38,889 nt of DNA from Rotaria socialis (GCA_905331295.1 CAJNYD010000157.1:62001-100889), one strand, 5' to 3'. Positions 14,491-38,889 are shown, numbered from the stretch's first letter. Notes: generated by a model from the sequence alone, not told the origin. Program-made: numbers and translations.

Positions 14491-17400
14491 CTATTGGATT
14501 GAAAAACATTGAACGCGATGATTCCCATGATCGACGACATAGAGATTTCCATAACGATCGAAAGACAGTCCTTCGAGATAGTGAAACTGGTTTACTCCTT
14601 CCCCTCTGCCATTTCCACCTACCATCACACTACCCTGTTTTGCTCCTTGAGACCAACGCATCACTCGATTATTTTCCCGATCTGCTACGTAAAGACTATT
14701 CAACGTGTCGACGAACAATCCGTTAGGATACGACAATTGTGTCAGAGCACTTCCTTGACCTTGACCACCAGCGACGGTAATTCCTTCTGCTGCACCTTTA
14801 TTCCATTTCATTACACGATGGTTTACATAGTCTGACACGTAGACCGACTGTTGTCTATCGACAAAGATATATGTAGGAAAGTCGAGTTGATTGAGACCAT
14901 CACCCTTTTCATGACCACCAGCCACGACAGTACCGTTATTGTCTCCCATTTGATATCGTCTGACTTCATCATTTTCGGTGTCAGAAATGTAGAGACATTT
15001 CTGATTGTCCATGGCCAATCCCCAACAGTTGATGTTGTCAACAAGAATTTCTCCGTGAGTAGTACCATGCCGACGAGACCATTGTAAGACTCGTAGATTC
15101 CACATATCGCAAATAATGAGACTATCCGTCTCTTTCTCAATTAATACATCAGTTGGCTGATTCAATTGATGTAGGAGGTTCCCTCTACCATGGCCACCAG
15201 CTACTACTTGTCCATTCGTATCGTTCATTTTCCATTGGACGATACGATGGTTTCTAAAGTCAGCGATGACCATTGTTTGATCATCATCAATAAAGAAACC
15301 GTGAGGGCTGGATATTTGATTGATGGTATTACCCGAACCATTGCCTCCAGCAACAGTCACACCATTATTTGCCCACTGTGCGTTCAATGAAATATCAGGG
15401 ACAACTAGATATGAACAAGCAAATCAAAATGAAATCAAAGTTCTTCTAGAAACAAAGCGGTTTTCATTTCAGTGAAATAGATTTCCAATCAAGCAAAGCC
15501 CGAAAAAAAAGTGAAATTCTATACAACATGTTGTTTTTCTAACTATTAAATTTCTATCTTCGAAATATCAATAGTATTTGTCATTTTCAGTCATTCACGA
15601 CCATGTAAGAAACGTTTCAACATCTCTACACATTTAGACGCTGCGTTCTCAGTATATAATGTCTAGTTAGAAACTTACCTTGTTGAAATTCTCCGTATGC
15701 ATCATAAACAATGAATAGTCTGATGTCATCACACCAGTAACTTGTAGTGCTTTGATTGACTGGTACATTAAATTCAATGAAAATTTCAAGCCCACGCATA
15801 TCTTTGCGTAAGATCATAGTGACATTCTCTTTGTTGAAGCCTGTAAACGGAAGAGGTATCGCAATTAGGACTAATATAAACGGAAACTTACTTAACGCTT
15901 GTCGAGCAACAACTGAGTCATTAACATTGATTCCTCTCAGCTCTATGCTTACATTGGGACTCATTTGAGCACTGAATACAACTTGAGTATATGACCAAGA
16001 AGTCGAATTCCACCTCTTTGATAAATTGAGACGTTGGAACATGCTTGCACTTGTATTCAGTGCTTGTAAAACGAAGCGACAGTTACTCGTATTATTATCT
16101 GATTTCATCGTAATGATATTGCCAGTCAGCAATGTCCAGTGATTGACAAGAGGAATATTGCAATCAGCTTGGCCATTGTTAATCAGATTTGTGTCATGAA
16201 CAAGCGTCCCATTACGTAGTACAGCGTTTTGAATAGAGAGAGCACTTCGAAGCTGTTCATCTGTAATCGTAGTTTCAGAGAAGTTAGCTTTGTACAGATT
16301 GGCATCAAGAAAACTAACGTCGGTCAGGTCAGCGTCTATGAACAAAGCACGCTTTACATTTGACTGCCGAAAGCAGGAAGAAGATAAATCAGTTTTATTG
16401 AAACGAGCTGCAACACAATATACTTGCTGAAAATCTGTATCAGATGCTCTCGTGACAGAAAAGTCGGCTGAAGCTAAAGCGCAACCCAAAAATAGATTTT
16501 GTGTATAAGAAAGATCCTATAATGAGCATTACCTAAAATAGCGAATGAAAAATTGACATGTATGAACTGCACAGCTGAAAAGCTAACGTTGTGGAGTTCG
16601 GCCGATATAAATTTGGTATTACCGAACGCACCGCATAAGAATTCAGTGTCATAGAGCAGAGAAGATGAAAAGTTTGTGTTCTCGAATTGTACTGACGAGA
16701 ACTGCACAGTGTCGATCCGAGCGAATGATAGGTCAGTATTAAAGAGCGATCCCATGAGAAAACAACTGTAATTTAGTGTAGATAATGAAAAATCAACACT
16801 ATCGAGTTCAGCTGATGAGAATTCGATATCGACTAGCGAAGACGATGAAAAGTTACAGTTAGAGAGCGAAGACGATGAAAAGTTGACAGTTTGTAACTTG
16901 CTGGATGAAAACTTAATATTCTTGAGTGTCGCGAATCCAAAATCGATATTCTGGAGTACGGTGGGTGAAATATTGCAATTGAATAGCGACGAGTTCGAAA
17001 AATTGATAGTATTTAGTTGAGTAGATGAAAAGGTGCAATTCGAGAGCGAAGAATTAAAAAAACTGACATTTTTCAGTTGAGACGATGAAAAATCAATATT
17101 TTCAAGTGCCGCGAACCTAAAATCGACATCCTCATGTCGGGTAGATGAAAAATTGATATTTTTCAATTGACTTAATGAAAATGTAGTATTCATTAGAGAA
17201 GTAAATGAAAAGTTCGCATGATCGAATCTAGCATGTGAAAAGTTGACGTGTCGAAGTTTCGCTGATGAAAAGTTAACTGTATCAAACTGAGTGTCGGCAA
17301 AGTTGACGTGCTCCATCTCAATCCCTATGAAGGTGGCATTCGTTAGAAAGATACTAGTCATTGATAATCTTTTCAATATCCTTTTATTGATTGCTGAGTC

Positions 17401-18063
17401 ACGAAAATCCATATCATGAAGCTCGGCTGTAGAAAGATCCAATGAAGGATGCTCGTGTAATTCAGTAAGTTGCTTGGCTTCGTAGAGAAATCGAATAATG
17501 TGAACATTGTACTGTGAATCTAATTTACGAAAGATATTCAGCGTTTTAGCTCGAGCGAGTGTAGCCGCAACTTCATTAGAAATTAGTGATCCATGGTTCT
17601 TCTCTAGCAGTTTCCCGATCTCTTTAATGTAAGTATCGAGAACTTCTTTTTGGTACCGTTCATTAGTCAAGGTTCTTTCTAGTTGACGCAGTTGTTCGGC
17701 TGCAATTCTATCTTCGATGCGTTGTTGTTGCGATGAATTTCGATCTTGTTCACGCAACTGTTCGGCTGCAATTCTATCTTCGATGCGTTGTTGTTGGGAT
17801 AAATTTCGGTCTTGCTCACGCAATCGTTCAGTTGCTTCTCGATCTTCAATTCGTTGTTGTTTGGATGCATTTCGATCTTCTTCACGTTGTTGTTTAGCTA
17901 GTTGCTGTTGCTGAAGAGAGATTATAAGAGTGAAGACGCCTAATGCGAGTGGGAGCAGTAAAGAAGAGAGAAACTTCAGAACATGTTTGAGTTTCAGACC
18001 AGAGAATTCACGAGACGAAACAAGGAACTGATCTGTTTGCGTTTTTTTGTCTTGAAAAACCAT
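14491..18063 (-). CDS. Fusion protein: TM, Q/R/E coiled coil, long pentapeptide beta-helix, beta-rich domain, six-bladed NHL propeller (about 1062 aa)
   Basis: Exons: 18063-16533, 16473-15892, 15840-15679, 15404-14491. All junctions are phase-1 GT-AG and in frame (e.g. CAA G|GTAAGT...CTAG|TT GTC CCT GAT giving QQVVPDISLNAQW). NHL blades read VAGG.G.G....QL..P..(I/L)FVD.....YV.D..NHRV..W. Confidence 0.85.
17686..17893 (-). repeat. About three 66-bp tandem repeats encoding QQQRIEDR(I/E)A(A/T)E(Q/R)LREQDRNxS
   Basis: Unit starts 'acgca' at 17686, 17752 and 17818 (period 66). Confidence 0.9.
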
Positions 18064-19111
18064 TTTCTCTCTTCACCAGACGTATAGCAGCAGGTGAACA
18101 AATGATTACTAACAATAATGGTTGAAGCTGAGTTTCTTCACTCTTGATAGTTTAAGGTAAGCGGAGAATGATTTTTAGAATTATGAAATGTGATATAACT
18201 GTATTTTTACTGGGTGAAAATCATGTTCCAATGTTGTTTGACCTACTGGCTCTATCAACTAAATGTTTAATCAATAGAATTTGGCAAAATAACATACCTT
18301 TGTTTCTCTTAGTTGTGTCACATACATGTGTTAGCTACCATAAACATCGTCAATGTCATTGATCATCCAAAAAAATTACGTTTATGAACATGAAGTAGAA
18401 GTAGATAGAATTTCATAAACATCATTGTGATCTCATTGGAGTTCTCATCAAAGTACCTGTATGACTCAGTTGACTGAGTGGGGATGAAACAACGAACTAC
18501 AAGTCAAATATGTTTTGATGATCAATGATGGTCAGAATCAATGATTAGCCATTGTAGAGTATAATGACTGTTGGCGGTTAGCAATAGTACAACATGTTAT
18601 ACTCAACTTAAAAGAATTAAAAGGAGCATCTCTCATCCATCTGAGCTGCGGACATCATTTTTATTTCCTAAGATACCTGATCACTAGTATATAGAACTAG
18701 CAACTATTATTTGTTCGGTACATGTGACACGTACTCGATTGATCTACAATAACTTGAAAAAATCGAAGAAATTTTCATTCAAAACTAATTCTCTCTGTAA
18801 TTCTTCATGTTTAAGAAAAAGAATATAATAGAAATATCAAAGTTTTCTATTATAGACATGATTCACTTGGGAGCGATTGCAGAAAAAGATCGAAAAAATT
18901 AAAAGAAACGTAGGAAATCGCATGTTCTTTTCTACTTTTTCTGATTTTTGTGTTCCACATAAACAGAGCATATAGCCAGTATTTAATCTATAGTTGTATA
19001 CACTGAAATCGATTAAAATTCAATTAATAGGCCTCAACTAATTCATAGAAGTGATTTAAAAATATGTCTTAAAAGAAAAAATGAATATTATTTTATTTAT
19101 TTATTTATTAG

Positions 19112-20220: not shown

Positions 20221-22919
20221 CTAGTAAAACAAAACAAAAAGTTGCATGCGAAGATTTGTTTGTGTCTCTTTTGCTTCATGCTTAAGCGATGCTTGCTGTT
20301 CTTCTAACTCTCGTTGTTTTTCATTGTATTCATCTTGCCTTACTTTTATTTCGCGTCGTGTTGCTTGTAGGTCATCTTCTTCTGTATTTAAATCCTTCAA
20401 GTAGCGCGTCATTAAATCAGATTTTTCAATTTTTTCTAATGATTTAATATTTTGTCTGATGCGCTCTTGATTTTCAAATATTGATTTAATATTTGCTTCG
20501 CGTGATTTAATTTTTGTTTCAAGTTGACGTATATTCATTTGTGTATCAAGAATCGCAACCGATTTATCAAATAATGATGTTGGTATTAAATCACGTTTTG
20601 GTGTCCATGTTCGAATTTGACTGTCAGTTATTGTACTGTCAATCATATGTCGAAGAACTTGCTCAACATATTTATATTTTATAATTTTTCCAAGTAAATC
20701 AATTGTTTTCTCATCGATTAATTTCAATTGGATAAGTTCCGGCACTTGCTTTTCTAGAAATGATTCAAGGTCTGATGCTTGAAAGATTTTTTTGCTATGC
20801 TTTGCTTGTTCGCCAACAATAAATTCAATCTCTTGTTGCGGTTCAAGTTTTAATTCAAAACGACTAAAACCCATAACTGACTTGATACAGTTCGTTTGTG
20901 TTGTTACAAGATAACCACCCAATGATGGGTCGGCAACATGGTCGATGTAGAATTTGTCTACGGGACGATCTAAAGAATTGTTTTTAATTAAATAGCGTGT
21001 TCGTTTTATGTAGATCTGTTGAAGATCAATGCCATTTGGAGCAACATTTAAATTGACCTTATCAACTTCGGAATAAATTATATCAACACTTTCTGTGTGA
21101 ACTTCTTGAAGTGCTAGTGGAGTTGTACGAAGAATAGATACAGTTGAATCTAAACCATAACTATGAAATATTTAAATTAAAAATGGAGGAGAAACGACAA
21201 AAAAGAAAAATTACTTAATCAATTGGTCATCATTAGGTAACATTGGTGTAAAAGCACATTGAGCAACGAAACGTCCATGATCTAAAACAGCAATACTTCC
21301 CGGTGCTAATACAATGCCACTGTTATTTCGCAAATGAACAGCTTTGATTGCATTTAAATCATTGATTTTTGGATCATAATAAAGTACCAATTGTGCATCC
21401 ATTTGCCATTTATTGATCGTTATTAGCACACTTTCATGCGATTTAATGCTGACTGGTGTATTTATTTTATAAACAACATGCTCACTAAGACCACTCATTT
21501 GACTCGAACCAATGGATTCATAGTTTTCATCATCATCATCATCAACAACATTCACATTAGTAGTAATTTTTCTACGTTTGTAAGCGATTGGCTCACTATC
21601 GTCATCTGCACTACCACGTAATCGTAGTACCAAATGTAAAGTAGACTCTATATAGATAAGTAAAATAGATAGAGTTCTCATTTTATACACATATATATGC
21701 ATGTCAATAATTACCTTTTTGAATATTATAAGCAGCTAGTGTTCTATCATTTTCCAATTGTTTTCCAGCAAATATCAAACGTTGCTGACCTGGAGGAATA
21801 CCTTCTTTGTCTTGAATTTTTGCTTTGATAGTTTCAATTCTATCTGACGGATCAGCCTATTATTAACAAGAATAAATAGATGATCATCAAATGAATTCCT
21901 TGTTTTTTCTTTATACATACTTCTATTGTAATTGTTTTACCCGTCAAAGTTTTAATGAAAATTTGCATACCACCGGACGAACTTTCTGATCCTTCACGAT
22001 TACTAGTAGTCGTAAGCGTTGGTTTATTATTATTTAATATTTCAAGTTCATTAGCAACAAGCATAAGTTCAACTTGAGACCAATCTTCTTCCGTTGGATT
22101 ATTCACTGAACCAAACAAAGTTAGACCAACTGTCGAAGCCTTACTGTTTGGCAAAGATGAATCGATTTCACATCGATATAAGCAATGCCATTCTTTTGTT
22201 GCATAACAATAAGATACATTAAGAATATTTGACTTATCAACAGTAGCTGTTGTTGAACATGATAATGAATCATCGCTATTGAACAAGATTCGAATATAAT
22301 TAGAGGCTGTATTTAATTGTGGTATCTTATTTTGCAATGTCTTTTTTAAGACTTTCTCAAGTTGTTCTTGCAAATATAGATCAGTAAGTTTAATACTTTT
22401 AATTGATGCAACTAATCGAAATAAATACGTTAATTAATGACTTTTGTTTTTGTAGAAACTATTTTACTTACAATCAAAGTGACGAATGAATCCATCTTTA
22501 TTCAAAACTTGAAGAACAAAATCTTTCCGTGTTTCTGTTGAATTTGGACTCAGTAATGCTTTGATTTCATCAAGCATAACCAGTTGACCTGATTGTTCTT
22601 TGTTTTCACCTTGACAAGAGAATGCTAGTTCAGCTCCAATACATGTTTTAAGAAAAGCAGCAAACGAAGTTGATGATGCAAAATCATTGAAAGCAAAATA
22701 GTGTTCAGCCGTATTTTCGGCGACATATTTATCATGCTCTTCTGTATCAAATGCTACCGTACTTGCTGTTGTACATAGCGTATCAATCACTAATTTCTTG
22801 TGTTTTTTAGCAACCGAAATAAATGATGCTGATCTTGAACTAGGAACTGTTCGCTCAAAATAACCTAAATCATTTTTATATAAAGTAATGCGCTTCAATG
22901 GAATAGTTTCAGTTGCCAT
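20221..22919 (-). CDS. DUF4139-like protein with an internal ubiquitin domain and a C-terminal coiled coil (about 817 aa)
   Basis: Exons: 22919-22472, 22411-21921, 21856-21715, 21647-21215, 21160-20221. N-terminus [24 protein letters not shown]...[83 protein letters not shown]. Ubiquitin lies at 21968-21610. Confidence 0.85.
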
Positions 22920-25432: not shown

Positions 25433-29738
<4,306 letters not shown>

Positions 29739-32939: not shown

Positions 32940-33642
32940 TATTGTGCTCCTACAATAAAATAAATTCCAAATCCTTATATGCTTTTTCTTCCTGTATTGA
33001 ATATTCAACTTATTGGTAGAGTAACTCATAGAGTTCTGGTAACTTATCATATGGATATAAGATATACGATTCTGACGTTTGTCATACAATAAGAAAACTT
33101 ATGAAATCATCTATTATATCTCACGAAAGTTAATTGAGCTAAATTAATTGGCAAATCTGTTACACAGCGAAAAAATTGCATTTGATTGATTGAAATATCA
33201 AAAGTAATGAAGACAACTTATCACTAGGTCTAAAGATTATTCATAGTGTCATTGCTTACGACATCTAGGTGATGGACTCGCTCAATGGTCGATTGTAGGT
33301 TCCACTCAGTGCTGCTGTTAAGCATATATCTCTTTTATAAGATATTGTTTCAAAAAAGTCAGAAGAAAAGAAAAAACGGTTCGGGTGCATGCACTCTGAC
33401 GCATATAATATAAATGGCCTATCTACATTACAGATCAAAGTCCATATTCGAAAGATCATATTCGAGAGAAAAAATTATATTTACAGCACATATGATTCTG
33501 CACGTATTTGTAGCACTGGGATATGGCAAGACACACTACATATATGTTTTTTAAGATGCTGATCTCATTTAGATGGAAAAAGAACGATTTTTATTCTACT
33601 CTAAACGCAAATAAAATATAATCTACTTTTTAATTTAAGATA

Positions 33643-35378
33643 ATGACGTCGACTGTTAATGAAAACGATCAGCCAATGTGGAATAATTTTAATCTATTTG
33701 CTTCCACAACGGATAGTGTAACGGAAGAAACAATTAAGTTTCAAGGAACAATTCCTGAATGGTTAAAAGGTACTCTTTATCGTAATGGTCCAGGAGCAAA
33801 TGAAGTCAATAATGATTTAACAACATCGGTTTATCATGCATTCGATGGTTTTGCTTATATTCAAAAATATAATATTGATGGACCATCGCAAACAGTTCGT
33901 TTTCGTGGTTCATTTATTAAATCACGTGCATACACTGAAGCATTAAAACATGGCCATTTAACTGTACGACAATTTGGTACAGATCCATGCAAATCAATTT
34001 TTGGTCGATTTCAATCGCTTTTTATGCGACGTGACCCAAGTACATTTTCTGATGATACAGGTGTTACCGTTCAACTCGTGCAGAATGAATTATTAGCACT
34101 TACAGAAACAATAGGAGGCAGCGTCATGGATCCTGACACATTGGAATTTTTAGGTCCACTGAGAGCTCTTCCTTATGATCAAAAAGTCGATTCGGAACTC
34201 TTCACACTGACGACAGCTCATGTAATGCATGATGACAAACGCCAAATGACAGTTGGCTACGGCGGAAGAATTTCACGTAAAGAACATTGGCTGGATGTTA
34301 TCTTCATATCGGATGAGCCATCAAAGACAGATAAAATAGGTTAGTTTATACATTGAAAAAAAACAATCAGTAATATTTTATTGAAATATTCCTGATTAAA
34401 ATAGAAGATGGTGATATAGATGAGCAGTTGTCTCTCAAAGATCATTTTATTCATATTACAAGAAATATGAATGAACGTTGCAAAGATTATAATCAACGTA
34501 TTAAATCAAGTGCAAAAATGTTTCGTTTTCCGTATGAAAATCCATGTTATATGCATTCGGCATCTATTAGTGAAGATTATTTGATTTTTACAGAAATTCC
34601 ATTGCATTTTAATACATTCAATGCCATTTGGAATAGTATTAGCGGTGGAACAATAATCGATATGTTTAAATGGCATGGTCAAACAAAGCCAACTTACTTT
34701 CGTATTATTAGTTTAGATACTGGTGAACAAATAGCACGTATTCCTGGTCCAGCATTTTTTATGTTTCATCATATTAATTCGTACCAAAGCAAAGATAATA
34801 AAAAGAAAATTACTGTTGATATTTGTGGCTTTGATGATCCTCGAATTATTAATGAGCTTTATTTAGACAAACTACGTGAAAATATATTTCCTTCAGGTGC
34901 TGGTTATCTTAGAAGATTTGAATTAGATTTAGACGCCAATACATGTATTGAATCAAACGCGAATGCAAGAGAACCCAAAGGAATTCACCGTGAGAGTTAT
35001 GCCAATAGTCTTGTGCCAGTTCAATTTGAATTACCGCGTATCAATCCAATCTTTATTACTAAACCGTATCGATATATATATGCTGTACGTGCACCACCTG
35101 GTCGATTGTTTGATGGATTAATTAAATTAGATGCTGAATCAAAACAGCAGGTAGCTGTATGGGAAGAACCATGTTCATCGCCAAGTGAACCTATTTTTGT
35201 TCCGCGACCTGATGCAAATTCTGATCAAGAAGATGATGGAGTTGTTTTATCGATCATTTTAGAACAACACGCAAAACGATCATTTATACTTGTGCTTGAT
35301 GGCATCACATTTAAAGAACTTGCTCGTGCTTATCTTCCTATTCATATTCCTTTATCGTTTCATGGTAATTTTTATTAA
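33643..35378 (+). CDS. Carotenoid cleavage oxygenase (BCO/RPE65/NinaB family, about 556 aa)
   Basis: Exons: 33643-34339 and 34405-35378. Motifs GTIPEWLKGTLYRNGPG, HAFDG, PCKSIFGRF; four Fe-ligand His contexts TTAH, YMHS, FHHIN, SFHG; also FELPRIN, PSEPIFVP, EDDGVVLS. Confidence 0.95.
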
Positions 35379-36296: not shown

Positions 36297-36934
36297 TTAG
36301 CATATGCCACATTTTGCTTGGCGGGTGAGGGTATTATCGGTGAATACAATGGCTCCTGTTCGCGCATAGACGGAACCTGTATAGACAACATTGGGTGAAA
36401 GCCCGATGGATGTGTAGGCGAGAATATTTTCAAGGAATTCGCTATTTCCGCCAAGTGTGGTGCTGCTGCCTACCTGCCGAAAGACGCAACTGTCATTGGC
36501 ACCGTTAATTGTTCGGATTTGACTAAAATCTGCGGTCATGAGCGCAGTGCCAATCTCAAATATATATATATGCCTGTACCGTTCAATGTTAAAACACCCG
36601 ATAGTTGACTGATTGCAATGAGTGCCACTGCAGCTAAATAGTCGTAGGCCGTAGTAACGTCATTTTGAGCTGTTCCGGCGATACCAGTACCCAATTATTC
36701 GACACCATTGATCATACCGAACGGATTGAAACCAGTCAAGGCGACACTTGGAATGATGGCCAGATCTCCGTTGATGACGGTCAAGCCTGCGTTTGTAATC
36801 GTGGTGGCAGCAATCACTGCAAAACCTGCAGCAAGTCCCATATCTGGACAGATTTGCATACTAACCGCATTGATAGTCAGACATAACAGAATACCAGAAA
36901 TAGCACTGAGCTGCACGTTTTGTAAAATATATAT
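36297..36934 (-). pseudogene. DUF3494 ice-binding-protein-like pseudogene, originally secreted
   Basis: Signal-like N-terminus; FAVIAATTITNAGLTVINGDLAI.P..ALTGF.P.G.ING; AQNDVTTAYDYL; LTLNG.G.YIF.IG..L; VF(R)QVGSSTTLG.NS.F..NILA.TSI. Lesions: in-frame stop at 36697-36695, frameshift in (AT)n at 36560-36571, an internal deletion, and an apparent ATG>ATA start. Confidence 0.85.
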
Positions 36935-38199
36935 TGTTTTTCCGATGAATGAATGACTACAAGTGATGAAAAGTGCGATGCATCAACTATTTATACGCAT
37001 ATTTTTGATTCTCATTGTGTGTCAGTCTTTTTCTTTGTTCGAGGATAAACGAGAGAAATTGAGAGGGCGTTGCGGAGTAAAAACATAGAGAACGATGATA
37101 GATTGGATGGCGAAATCATCATCAACGAATTTTTAGATAAGCATTTTTTATTTGTGCAAGAGTGCACGCGTTAACGTGTGTCATTTTCTTATCGAAGAAT
37201 TGAGAAAAAAGAGGAAAAGATTAGCAGTTCTAGTCAAATTTATACAAAATATAGCTTTCCAATAGTAATACCATCACTCTCTCAATCTATGGAGAGCAGC
37301 GCTTCAGTACCACGATGGATACAGATCGGCAAGTGTATTTACACAGAAAGGTGAATGGGACATTTATCTTGAGAAAATGCATTGAGGTAAATCGTACTAA
37401 CAATTTTCTGTACGAATTTCATACGAATAGTTCTTTTTTTCAGACAGACCGGTTGATAATTTCTCAGCAGACATTGATGTAAACCGATTTTTGTTGAACA
37501 GAGATCTATAATTCAACAGTGTTCAATGTTTACATTTTTTTTGCGACAAACTCCAAGTTAATTCTTGTGGTTATTCTTGTACTTGTATTTGTGTCGATAC
37601 CATTTGAAGTGCGTCACTTTATGTCGAGATCTTCAATAACGTCATCGACGATGTAGATGTGAGTCTCTTTTTACAAGTATCCACATTCATCTCTTCTCCC
37701 GTTACCTTGAACAATTTTGAACATGAGTATAAGCATAACGTCGAACAAATAATCTTTTACATTCGTATCAATATTTTTAGTATAGCATCTACTATTTAAA
37801 TATTTAACAAAATCTATTGAATGAAAATCGACATTCCATCTATTTATGTAAACTACGATGAAGATAGAAAAAACAAGAGATCGACAATATTTGAATGCCA
37901 TACCATTTCATTTCTTACTTATTTACTGATACATGGAAACGAACCATTCAATTAGTTAATTATGAATATTCGAGAAAATTCATTGATGAAAAGCGCGAAA
38001 TTAAGCAGCCGTACTGAATTTAAATGAGTGACAACCCAAGATTTCACGAACACAAATTACATCATCAAACCATTAGGATCATTTAGAACATTTCTATAAA
38101 AAATCAAAAAAACAATTCATGAGTCATTTTACATAGACGAAATCGGCCATGATAGTTACTATCACACTCCACCATCTACACAAACACTTTCATAAAACT

Positions 38200-38889
<690 letters not shown>

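Follow-up and report, generated by a model that had tools for sequence, protein, structure and literature searches.

A conserved internal ubiquitin in a DUF4139-type protein of Rotaria socialis and other eukaryotes: a candidate stand-in for conjugated ubiquitin

The pathway of ubiquitin-fusion degradation (UFD) was defined on artificial substrates. In these (Ub-Pro-X, Ub-G76V-X) a near-standard ubiquitin with K29 and K48 stands at the N-terminus and is held there by one of two blocks, as Pro after ubiquitin escapes cleavage and an altered G76 stops its removal (PMC9703124; here and for the other papers cited by number, statements refer to the accessible part of the text). Uncleavable fusions are degraded via K29 and K48 of the fused ubiquitin, K29 being critical in yeast; a ubiquitin inserted between two domains becomes ubiquitylated, and degradation follows by the same pathway, for which few physiological substrates are known (PMC9703124). 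Here we describe a gene of the bdelloid rotifer Rotaria socialis, located at positions 20221-22919 of a 38,889-nucleotide (nt) stretch of DNA (GCA_905331295.1 CAJNYD010000157.1:62001-100889; 'the window' means this whole stretch), which encodes a protein of 817 amino acids (aa) with a near-standard ubiquitin in an internal loop of a DUF4139-type scaffold. The family to which it belongs shows the same two blocks as the engineered substrates and the same kind of ubiquitin. Unlike theirs, its ubiquitin is internal, natural, conserved over eukaryotic supergroups, carried on a predicted oligomer and known from sequence, and K29 is missing from 16 of 98 non-bdelloid members. We see an even chance that this ubiquitin serves as a permanent stand-in for conjugated ubiquitin, a handle for p97 and the proteasome on a cytosolic oligomer.

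The nearest named protein outside the rotifers on our trees is Ublp94.4 of Acanthamoeba castellanii (AAQ16627.1, Q6WMU7; 853 aa, 41% identity), which has the same architecture with Cys at ubiquitin position 76, where the 817-aa protein has Ser. What marks a Ublp94.4-like protein, namely an N-terminal scaffold part, a single internal ubiquitin, a C-terminal scaffold part and no export signal, is all found in the 817-aa protein. Its ubiquitin domain also gives a TIGR00601 match and fold matches to integral domains of the Rad23, Dsk2 and Parkin type. Those are uncleaved ubiquitin folds able to dock on receptors, but they are about 17-35% identical to our ubiquitin domain (fold table), whereas members of the family match ubiquitin itself at a median of 65/76 positions and retain its lysines and tail. 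Fusions of ubiquitin to NiSOD, actin or bacterial-like membrane proteins in algae and fungi are likewise sometimes internal, with a bacterial-type partner and a patchy distribution in eukaryotes, but their partners are other ones and position and copy number vary (PMC6332867). Cleavage and the DUF4139-type scaffold do not come up in the accessible text of that survey, and its Bigelowiella table includes an 832-aa 'hypothetical' fusion. Bacterial DUF4139/TIGR02231 proteins (MuiA-like, 660-820 aa class), finally, are colinear with the whole scaffold and have the same insertion slot, and six invariant residues are common to all 129 aligned sequences; however, they are only 15-22% identical, ubiquitin is found in 0 of 39, and they are mostly exported proteins, at least 31 of the 39 with a hydrophobic leader, against 0 of 90 eukaryotic members with a leader or membrane-like segment. 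The bacterial slot is filled by low-complexity linkers or, in 4 of 9 scanned proteins, by a carboxypeptidase-regulatory-like domain, which agrees with the variable inserts expected by an earlier prediction made from the sequence of the window (the original prediction).

The internal ubiquitin and its junction

The elements on which the argument turns are the following:

20221..22919, minus strand: whole gene, 817 aa, five exons (spliced frame; same as stored protein P0221)
21610..21968, minus strand: ubiquitin domain, aa 298-373, two introns inside (Pfam; model against solved ubiquitin, root-mean-square deviation about 1 Å)
21610..21612, minus strand: ubiquitin position 76, encoded as Ser; the next residue is Ala (splice model, family comparison)

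After splicing, the domain is identical at 62 of 76 positions to the commonest, and at 63 of 76 to the second commonest, of 233 polyubiquitin units out of 69 stored proteins. Lysines at positions 6, 11, 27, 29, 33, 48 and 63 are retained, among them the K29 and K48 both needed for UFD-type substrates, as are L8, I44 and V70, and Pfam matches ubiquitin at aa 300-371 with 1.8e-28 (on P0001, a 3-residue variant of the 817-aa protein). The original prediction had described just such a domain, hidden by two introns, with about 63/76 identities, G76S and SSGG before the Met, and was correct in each of these points. The Ser-Ser-Gly-Gly immediately before the ubiquitin Met was considered as a cleavage site and rejected; Gly-Gly precedes the Met in 38 of 89 members and Arg is found at -3 or -5 in 8 of 89, and we regard it as linker.

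The family was collected with the ubiquitin-free part of the protein. Searching with aa 400-800 gave 79 proteins out of 5220 candidates, and a profile built from six C-terminal fragments gave 249 matches, 120 of which are listed. By name these comprise bdelloids (Rotaria, Adineta, Didymodactylos), amoeba-type organisms (Acanthamoeba, Arcella, Dracoamoeba, Flabellula, Soliformovum, Rhizamoeba, Mastigella, Mastigamoeba, Vannella, Nematostelium, Dermamoeba), dinoflagellates (Pelagodinium, Polarella, Crypthecodinium, Yihiella, Biecheleria), the diatoms Trieres and Odontella, and further Spironema and Cymbomonas. In all 90 aligned full-length eukaryotic members ubiquitin occupies the same slot. When cedratvirus particles were purified, the Acanthamoeba member was listed among their host proteins on the strength of one unique peptide (2.6% coverage; PMC12724359), and because of this peptide it can be taken to exist as a protein. 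In two bacterial phyla, 15 of 121 and 25 of 401 genomes, respectively, contained a relative, and the neighbourhoods of two signal-less bacterial homologues had nothing evident in common. Viral contigs yielded 184 pattern matches and 0 relatives of the family, and a plasmid search with the rotifer scaffold gave no match.

Decisive for our reading is the bond behind ubiquitin. A cleavable precursor has Gly-Gly at positions 75-76 followed by a residue other than Pro, and the 817-aa protein has Gly-Ser. After removal of 25 cluster members, 154 of 179 stored scaffold proteins remained, and the tail is visible in 134 of them: 69 do not end in Gly-Gly (residue 76 being Ser in 22, Asp in 19, Asn in 6, Glu in 5, plus others), 61 read Gly-Gly-Pro and 4 read Gly-Gly followed by something else. 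When 25 bdelloid rows, recognised by name or by likeness, are left out, Pro comes next after 53 of 57 Gly-Gly tails, compared with 2 of 52 other tails and a background of 7% over the next ten linker positions. At position 76 and the next residue, Adineta and Didymodactylos have Gly-Pro, most Rotaria proteins Ser-Pro, and the R. socialis copy described here Ser-Ala. A tree of 90 tips, calculated without ubiquitin and linker columns, shows 23 switches of the junction state; of 16 independent pairs taken on supported branches, 13.6 had Pro going with Gly-Gly and 0.0 had it going against (mean of 200 pairings, median p 1.2e-4). The junction thus was likely kept deubiquitinase-resistant across the family, which reached both laboratory blocks naturally and swapped between them about two dozen times. 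Because both blocks were reached repeatedly while the working surface of ubiquitin stayed whole, the uncut ubiquitin seems to be the function itself, and we consider the comparative evidence for this strong.

That surface is conserved to a high degree. Among 98 non-bdelloid domains (out of 119 gap-free ones) K6, K11, K27, K48 (98/98), I44, R72 and L73 are 100% conserved, L8, R42, K63, H68, V70, L71, R74 and G75 reach 98-99%, K33 97% and K29 84% (82/98); variation clusters at residues 16-28 and at Met1. The median identity to 78 non-bdelloid members is 78% for ubiquitin and 30-36% for the scaffold. Synonymous distances were alike in both parts (ubiquitin 0.66 vs scaffold 0.68 and 0.63; 0.54 vs 0.55 and 0.62; saturated in the third comparison, with L025, the sister lineage of the bdelloids), which argues that the ubiquitin was kept by selection and travelled with its gene; the same equality rules out recent copying or gene conversion from ubiquitin genes. 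Judged by this conservation, the domain is under ubiquitin-like selection. One family member (P0278) has a tandem pair of ubiquitins, the first junction being a normal Gly-Gly-Met and the second Gly-Gly-Pro.

The family hence is real, conserved and apparently unstudied, not confined to rotifers and not a fresh bacterial acquisition. An architecture both widespread and characterised would have spoken against the original prediction. Widespread it is, whereas a characterisation was not found in the literature searched, which is thin on subscription papers and excludes supplements: nothing there ties DUF4139 to ubiquitin, the accessible text mentions DUF4139 in table entries only, and the available part of a review of ubiquitin genes (PMC11354881) mentions no DUF domains. 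For Ublp94.4 the same literature gave no function, its sole mention being a proteomics table; the name may stem from an older paper outside the search.

Scaffold, proposed role and alternatives

Outside the ubiquitin, the protein is divided as follows (pLDDT, predicted local distance difference test):

22326..22664, minus strand: helix, five strands and helix, aa 86-178, ordered as in Sm/Hfq; predicted module for self-association (model)
22050..22223, minus strand: first half of the DUF4139 match, aa 213-270; W224, N254 and W260 are invariant (Pfam, alignment)
21969..22049, minus strand: flexible linker ahead of ubiquitin, aa 271-297, pLDDT below 50 at 278-295 (model)
21514..21609, minus strand: flexible acidic/basic linker after ubiquitin, aa 374-405, pLDDT below 50 (model)
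20785..21513, minus strand: second beta-rich part of the scaffold, aa 406-630; N468 and G477 are invariant (Pfam, alignment, model)
20227..20778, minus strand: C-terminal helical region with long helices 699-745 and 753-816; Q736, R738, R740, N742, R757 and E766 conserved down to bacteria (alignment, model)

As had been proposed, the scaffold is of the DUF4139 type: PF13598 scores 33.4 bits over aa 213-516, spanning the ubiquitin (on P0001; cut-off 31.8), and 34.5 bits in P0014, while two distant members fall just below the cut-off with 29.7 and 28.9. DUF4140, also named at that time, gave no Pfam match up to E 1 in 4 proteins. The TIGR02231 (MuiA family) profile matches with E 1.9e-19 and 69.8 bits, below its cut-off of 112.6, so that by profile score the 817-aa protein is related to this family and not a member of it. 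A structural model from 129 sequences (pLDDT 87.5, predicted template modelling score 0.66; an earlier 12-sequence model with pLDDT 57 was not used) shows a beta-rich body to which the sequence on either side of the insert contributes, the ubiquitin held by two disordered linkers (278-295 and 370-405), and two long C-terminal helices; the structure prediction proposed as a check has thus placed the ubiquitin on flexible tethers. The linker before ubiquitin has a family median of 28 aa. Searches of the PDB with the scaffold sequence alone gave nothing below E 0.1, and sequence and fold searches with the full model were filled by ubiquitin. The model also fold-matches uncharacterised proteins of giant viruses (Pandoravirus, Tupanvirus, Pithovirus, Orpheovirus) of 370-490 aa, with 8-12% identity and E down to 2e-20, which appear to be a shorter DUF4139-like class. 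In the ESM Atlas the nearest ubiquitin-free look-alikes are Asgard-rich, Chloroflexota and Myxococcota clusters (0.95, 0.94, 0.94), a lead only.

Within aa 86-178, G95 is invariant and L90 and G111 are nearly so. Four copies of aa 56-182 were predicted to associate head-to-tail with a score of 0.58, the best of 3 controls reaching 0.00; the runs had at least 68% of contacts in common and pLDDT of at least 65. Among structures from microbes, 21 of 30 solved pairs and 0 of 23 single chains attained the mark used for such scores; among those from eukaryotes, 17 of 29 pairs and 0 of 30 single chains did. In the predicted contact, strand 153-158 pairs with strand 142-147 of the neighbouring copy, and helix 161-178 sits on the invariant G95. 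Contacts of this strand type close Sm rings. As in Sm and Hfq modules, the segment's last strand would pair with the fourth one of the neighbouring copy, and from this predicted pairing we infer a ring-shaped oligomer. Unlike those modules, the segment has no significant sequence match, no Pfam hit and an extra helix in the interface, and RNA binding is not implied.

Taken together, the proposed mechanism would run as follows. The ubiquitin would stay attached, its junction resisting deubiquitinases, while the scaffold would self-associate head-to-tail via aa 56-182 in the cytosol, probably as a ring. Ordinary ubiquitin receptors and ligases would read the internal domain as conjugated ubiquitin, ligases could extend it (K48 being invariant and K29 mostly present), and extended subunits would be passed to p97 and the proteasome. 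Members of the family would thereby be natural UFD-type substrates, and the ubiquitin tag would be the cell's handle for dismantling the oligomer. Since the bacterial slot carries other small domains, the scaffold is most likely a display frame. A bolder version, possible but put forward with real hesitation, is that in an old eukaryotic family a bacterial envelope scaffold became a cytosolic ring crowned with genetically fixed, deubiquitinase-proof ubiquitins, a built-in chain mimic engaged by p97, the proteasome or other receptors without priming by a ligase, and thus a selected natural counterpart of the Ub-Pro and Ub-G76X reporters. The family offers candidates for natural UFD substrates in workable organisms (Acanthamoeba, diatoms, Adineta), together with a natural series of junction residues for studying deubiquitinase specificity and a first handle on the role of the DUF4139 scaffold.

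Several points weigh against the stand-in reading. Four of the 134 tails look cleavable, K29 is absent in part of the family as said above, and Ala or Ser at the C-terminus of ubiquitin is partially cleavable (PMC9703124), so that Ser76 may be no more than a partial block; the original prediction's 'probably uncleavable' is backed as resistance by the family-wide junction pattern but too strong for the R. socialis copy. This copy also has D39G, D52N and D58A, at positions 93-98% conserved elsewhere, as well as G53D and T22R, and the species encodes a paralogue with a more standard ubiquitin (P0003); the 817-aa copy may be a relaxed paralogue. The near-perfect L71-G75 tail exceeds what a degron needs and would equally fit enzyme binding. 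As to the oligomer, the prediction concerns a cut fragment in four copies, beyond the calibration and without alignment, and among eukaryotic pairs that had no older solved relative only 1 of 7 attained the mark; the score may echo solved Sm-type rings. The best segment tried in hhalign against 21 Hfq sequences was in register but not significant (1.2% probability, E 0.045).

The conserved tail leads to the strongest competitor, in which the protein would be a deubiquitinase pseudo-substrate: residues L71-G75 would dock uncut and recruit or inhibit deubiquitinases of the cell itself or of intracellular parasites. That residues 71-75 are 98-100% conserved despite a blocked bond would suit this idea, the modelled tethers are flexible enough that they could admit the tail to an active site, and many of the hosts are phagotrophic amoebae. 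However, the remaining ubiquitin surfaces and six lysines are conserved as well as the tail, which fits general readers, diatoms and dinoflagellates carry the family too, and the rapid divergence of surface residues that a pathogen decoy should show is not seen. We consider this explanation unlikely, and for a decoy directed at pathogen deubiquitinases, one of the roles first suggested, no support was found.

The predicted self-association could also serve a stable protein, the several ubiquitins of an oligomer mimicking a chain and recruiting autophagy, signalling or ESCRT (endosomal sorting complex required for transport) receptors by avidity without degradation. K63 (99%) and the I44 patch (99-100%) are conserved as such a multivalent tag would require, fusions engineered to be non-cleavable are able to bring about trafficking and mitophagy (PMC9703124), and the Acanthamoeba member was detected as protein with cedratvirus particles (PMC12724359). 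One peptide, though, is uninformative on stability, size and geometry of the oligomer rest on prediction, and an engineered, exposed, wild-type-like internal ubiquitin was degraded (PMC9703124), which makes a non-degradative tag quite unlikely in our view.

Slow processing is a further alternative: the ubiquitin could assist folding of the scaffold, or a slow cut after assembly could leave two associated chains. The partial nature of a Ser or Ala block at position 76 (PMC9703124) and the four cleavable-looking members would allow this, and ubiquitin on ribosomal proteins has been called a cis chaperone (PMC11354881). But the block is present in 130 of 134 tails and arose via many separate changes, bacterial homologues manage without ubiquitin, and all the binding surfaces would be superfluous for a folding aid. 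We regard it as very improbable.

Gene model and history of the fusion

The five exons of the gene are:

22472..22919, minus strand: exon 1, aa 1-149, without signal peptide (splice model)
21921..22411, minus strand: exon 2, aa 150-313, with ubiquitin residues 1-16 at its end (splice model; the bdelloid loci L060 and L062 break alike)
21715..21856, minus strand: exon 3, aa 314-360, ubiquitin residues 17-63 (PF00240, 8.4e-18)
21215..21647, minus strand: exon 4, aa 361-504, ubiquitin tail, linker and second half of the DUF4139 match (splice model, Pfam)
20221..21160, minus strand: exon 5, aa 505-817, encoding the beta region and the helices at the C-terminus (splice model, structure model)

All four introns are GT-AG (60, 64, 67 and 54 nt), with 22% GC compared with 33% in the exons. 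Joined, the exons form a single open frame of 817 codons; the product shows 0 differences from the stored R. socialis protein P0221 (CAF3224426.1, UniRef A0A817QZZ9), publicly annotated as 'ubiquitin-like domain-containing protein', so the spliced product as first proposed holds. Introns at 21920-21857 and 21714-21648 interrupt the ubiquitin coding region after its nt 48 and 190, where we take the genes for ribosomal ubiquitin fusions in humans to have introns too. Breaks lie at identical codons in six bdelloid-like genomic loci (L055, L056, L059, L060, L062, L067), the intron at nt 48 being absent from L055 and L056. A bdelloid-like contig of 2565 nt, 66% identical (L027), has the whole frame without introns across all four junction positions, with ubiquitin in-frame, and by this intron-free frame would be a transcript; transcript assemblies are also the source of many protist family members. 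In one sequencing run (80% likeness) contigs about 85% alike over exon 5 and ubiquitin-gene contigs occurred, and none showed a joint. A ubiquitin-less Rotaria record (P0011), in which the exon before ubiquitin is joined to the last ubiquitin exon and which has a full-length counterpart (P0012), is read as a gene-model artefact. R. socialis records stop at aa 810 or at 817; at 20221-20244 of the window a stop difference or a gene-model difference gives the 817-aa copy seven extra hydrophobic residues.

The phylogeny, called for by the original prediction, was calculated from 658 scaffold columns, excluding ubiquitin and linkers, with FastTree local values or the Shimodaira-Hasegawa-like approximate likelihood ratio test (SH-aLRT) as supports and no firm root. 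All 12 bdelloid tips fall into a single clade surrounded by protist genes, with Didymodactylos as first branch. Outward follow the sister lineage L025 (47% identical), an AT-rich clade and then Acanthamoeba, with SH-aLRT of 100, 97.5, 99.8 and 99.4 in a reduced set that retained 55 eukaryotic and 6 bacterial rows. The named dinoflagellates group together, and so do the named diatoms. All eukaryotic members are joined by a long branch (1.26) with weak support (0.85; 54). The proteins closest to the bdelloid clade come from eukaryotes and bear ubiquitin, with about 40-47% identity as against 15-22% for bacteria, and the intron at ubiquitin nt 190 is common to bdelloids and their sister lineage (L025/L026). 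Bdelloids are the only named animals among the 79 matches and among the 120 listed of the 249.

The simplest reading is one fusion early in eukaryotes and later a single entry into bdelloids from a eukaryotic donor, which would date before Didymodactylos split from Adineta and Rotaria. As the bdelloid clade nests among protist genes, the bdelloid copies likely arrived ready-made, a likely case of protist-to-animal gene transfer; protists are known donors of the many foreign genes that bdelloids carry (PMC4632278). Vertical descent with many losses may be an alternative to such a transfer. That a bacterial gene entered the rotifer lineage and captured a host ubiquitin there, as originally suggested, would suit a DUF4139-like scaffold colinear with bacterial proteins and a genome rich in foreign genes (PMC4632278), but is hardly credible against ubiquitin in 90/90 eukaryotic and 0/39 bacterial proteins, the same architecture in amoebozoans, dinoflagellates, diatoms, Spironema and Cymbomonas, enclosing branches with SH-aLRT of 97.5-99.8, and the intron found in the sister lineage as well.

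Neighbouring genes in the window

A CDC48/p97 paralogue (Pfam) lies at 25433-28200 (plus strand), head to head with the ubiquitin-bearing gene and 2.5 kb from it. Its pore-loop segments deviate from the usual p97 sequence. A second copy of its end, 91% identical and inverted, is found at 38691-38889 (minus strand). In the bdelloid locus L055 no p97 gene was found within 5 kb of the homologue.

Further genes include an ice-binding-like gene at 36300-36982 (minus strand; PF11999, 5.6e-18), which is likely foreign, and a TRIM-like ligase at 9800-12050 (plus strand), in which exons resembling leucine-rich repeats come after the RING, B-box and helical region. At 7127-8077 (plus strand), 15626-18072 (minus strand), 14491-15423 (minus strand) and 33634-35378 (plus strand) Pfam identifies pentapeptide-repeat genes, one gene with NHL repeats and one for an RPE65/carotenoid oxygenase. 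At 686-6054 (minus strand) there is a multi-exon gene with internal repeat units about 65-70% alike and no Pfam family above cut-off. At 28928-29126 an exact 85-nt direct repeat flanks a single N at 29041, which is probably an assembly joint.

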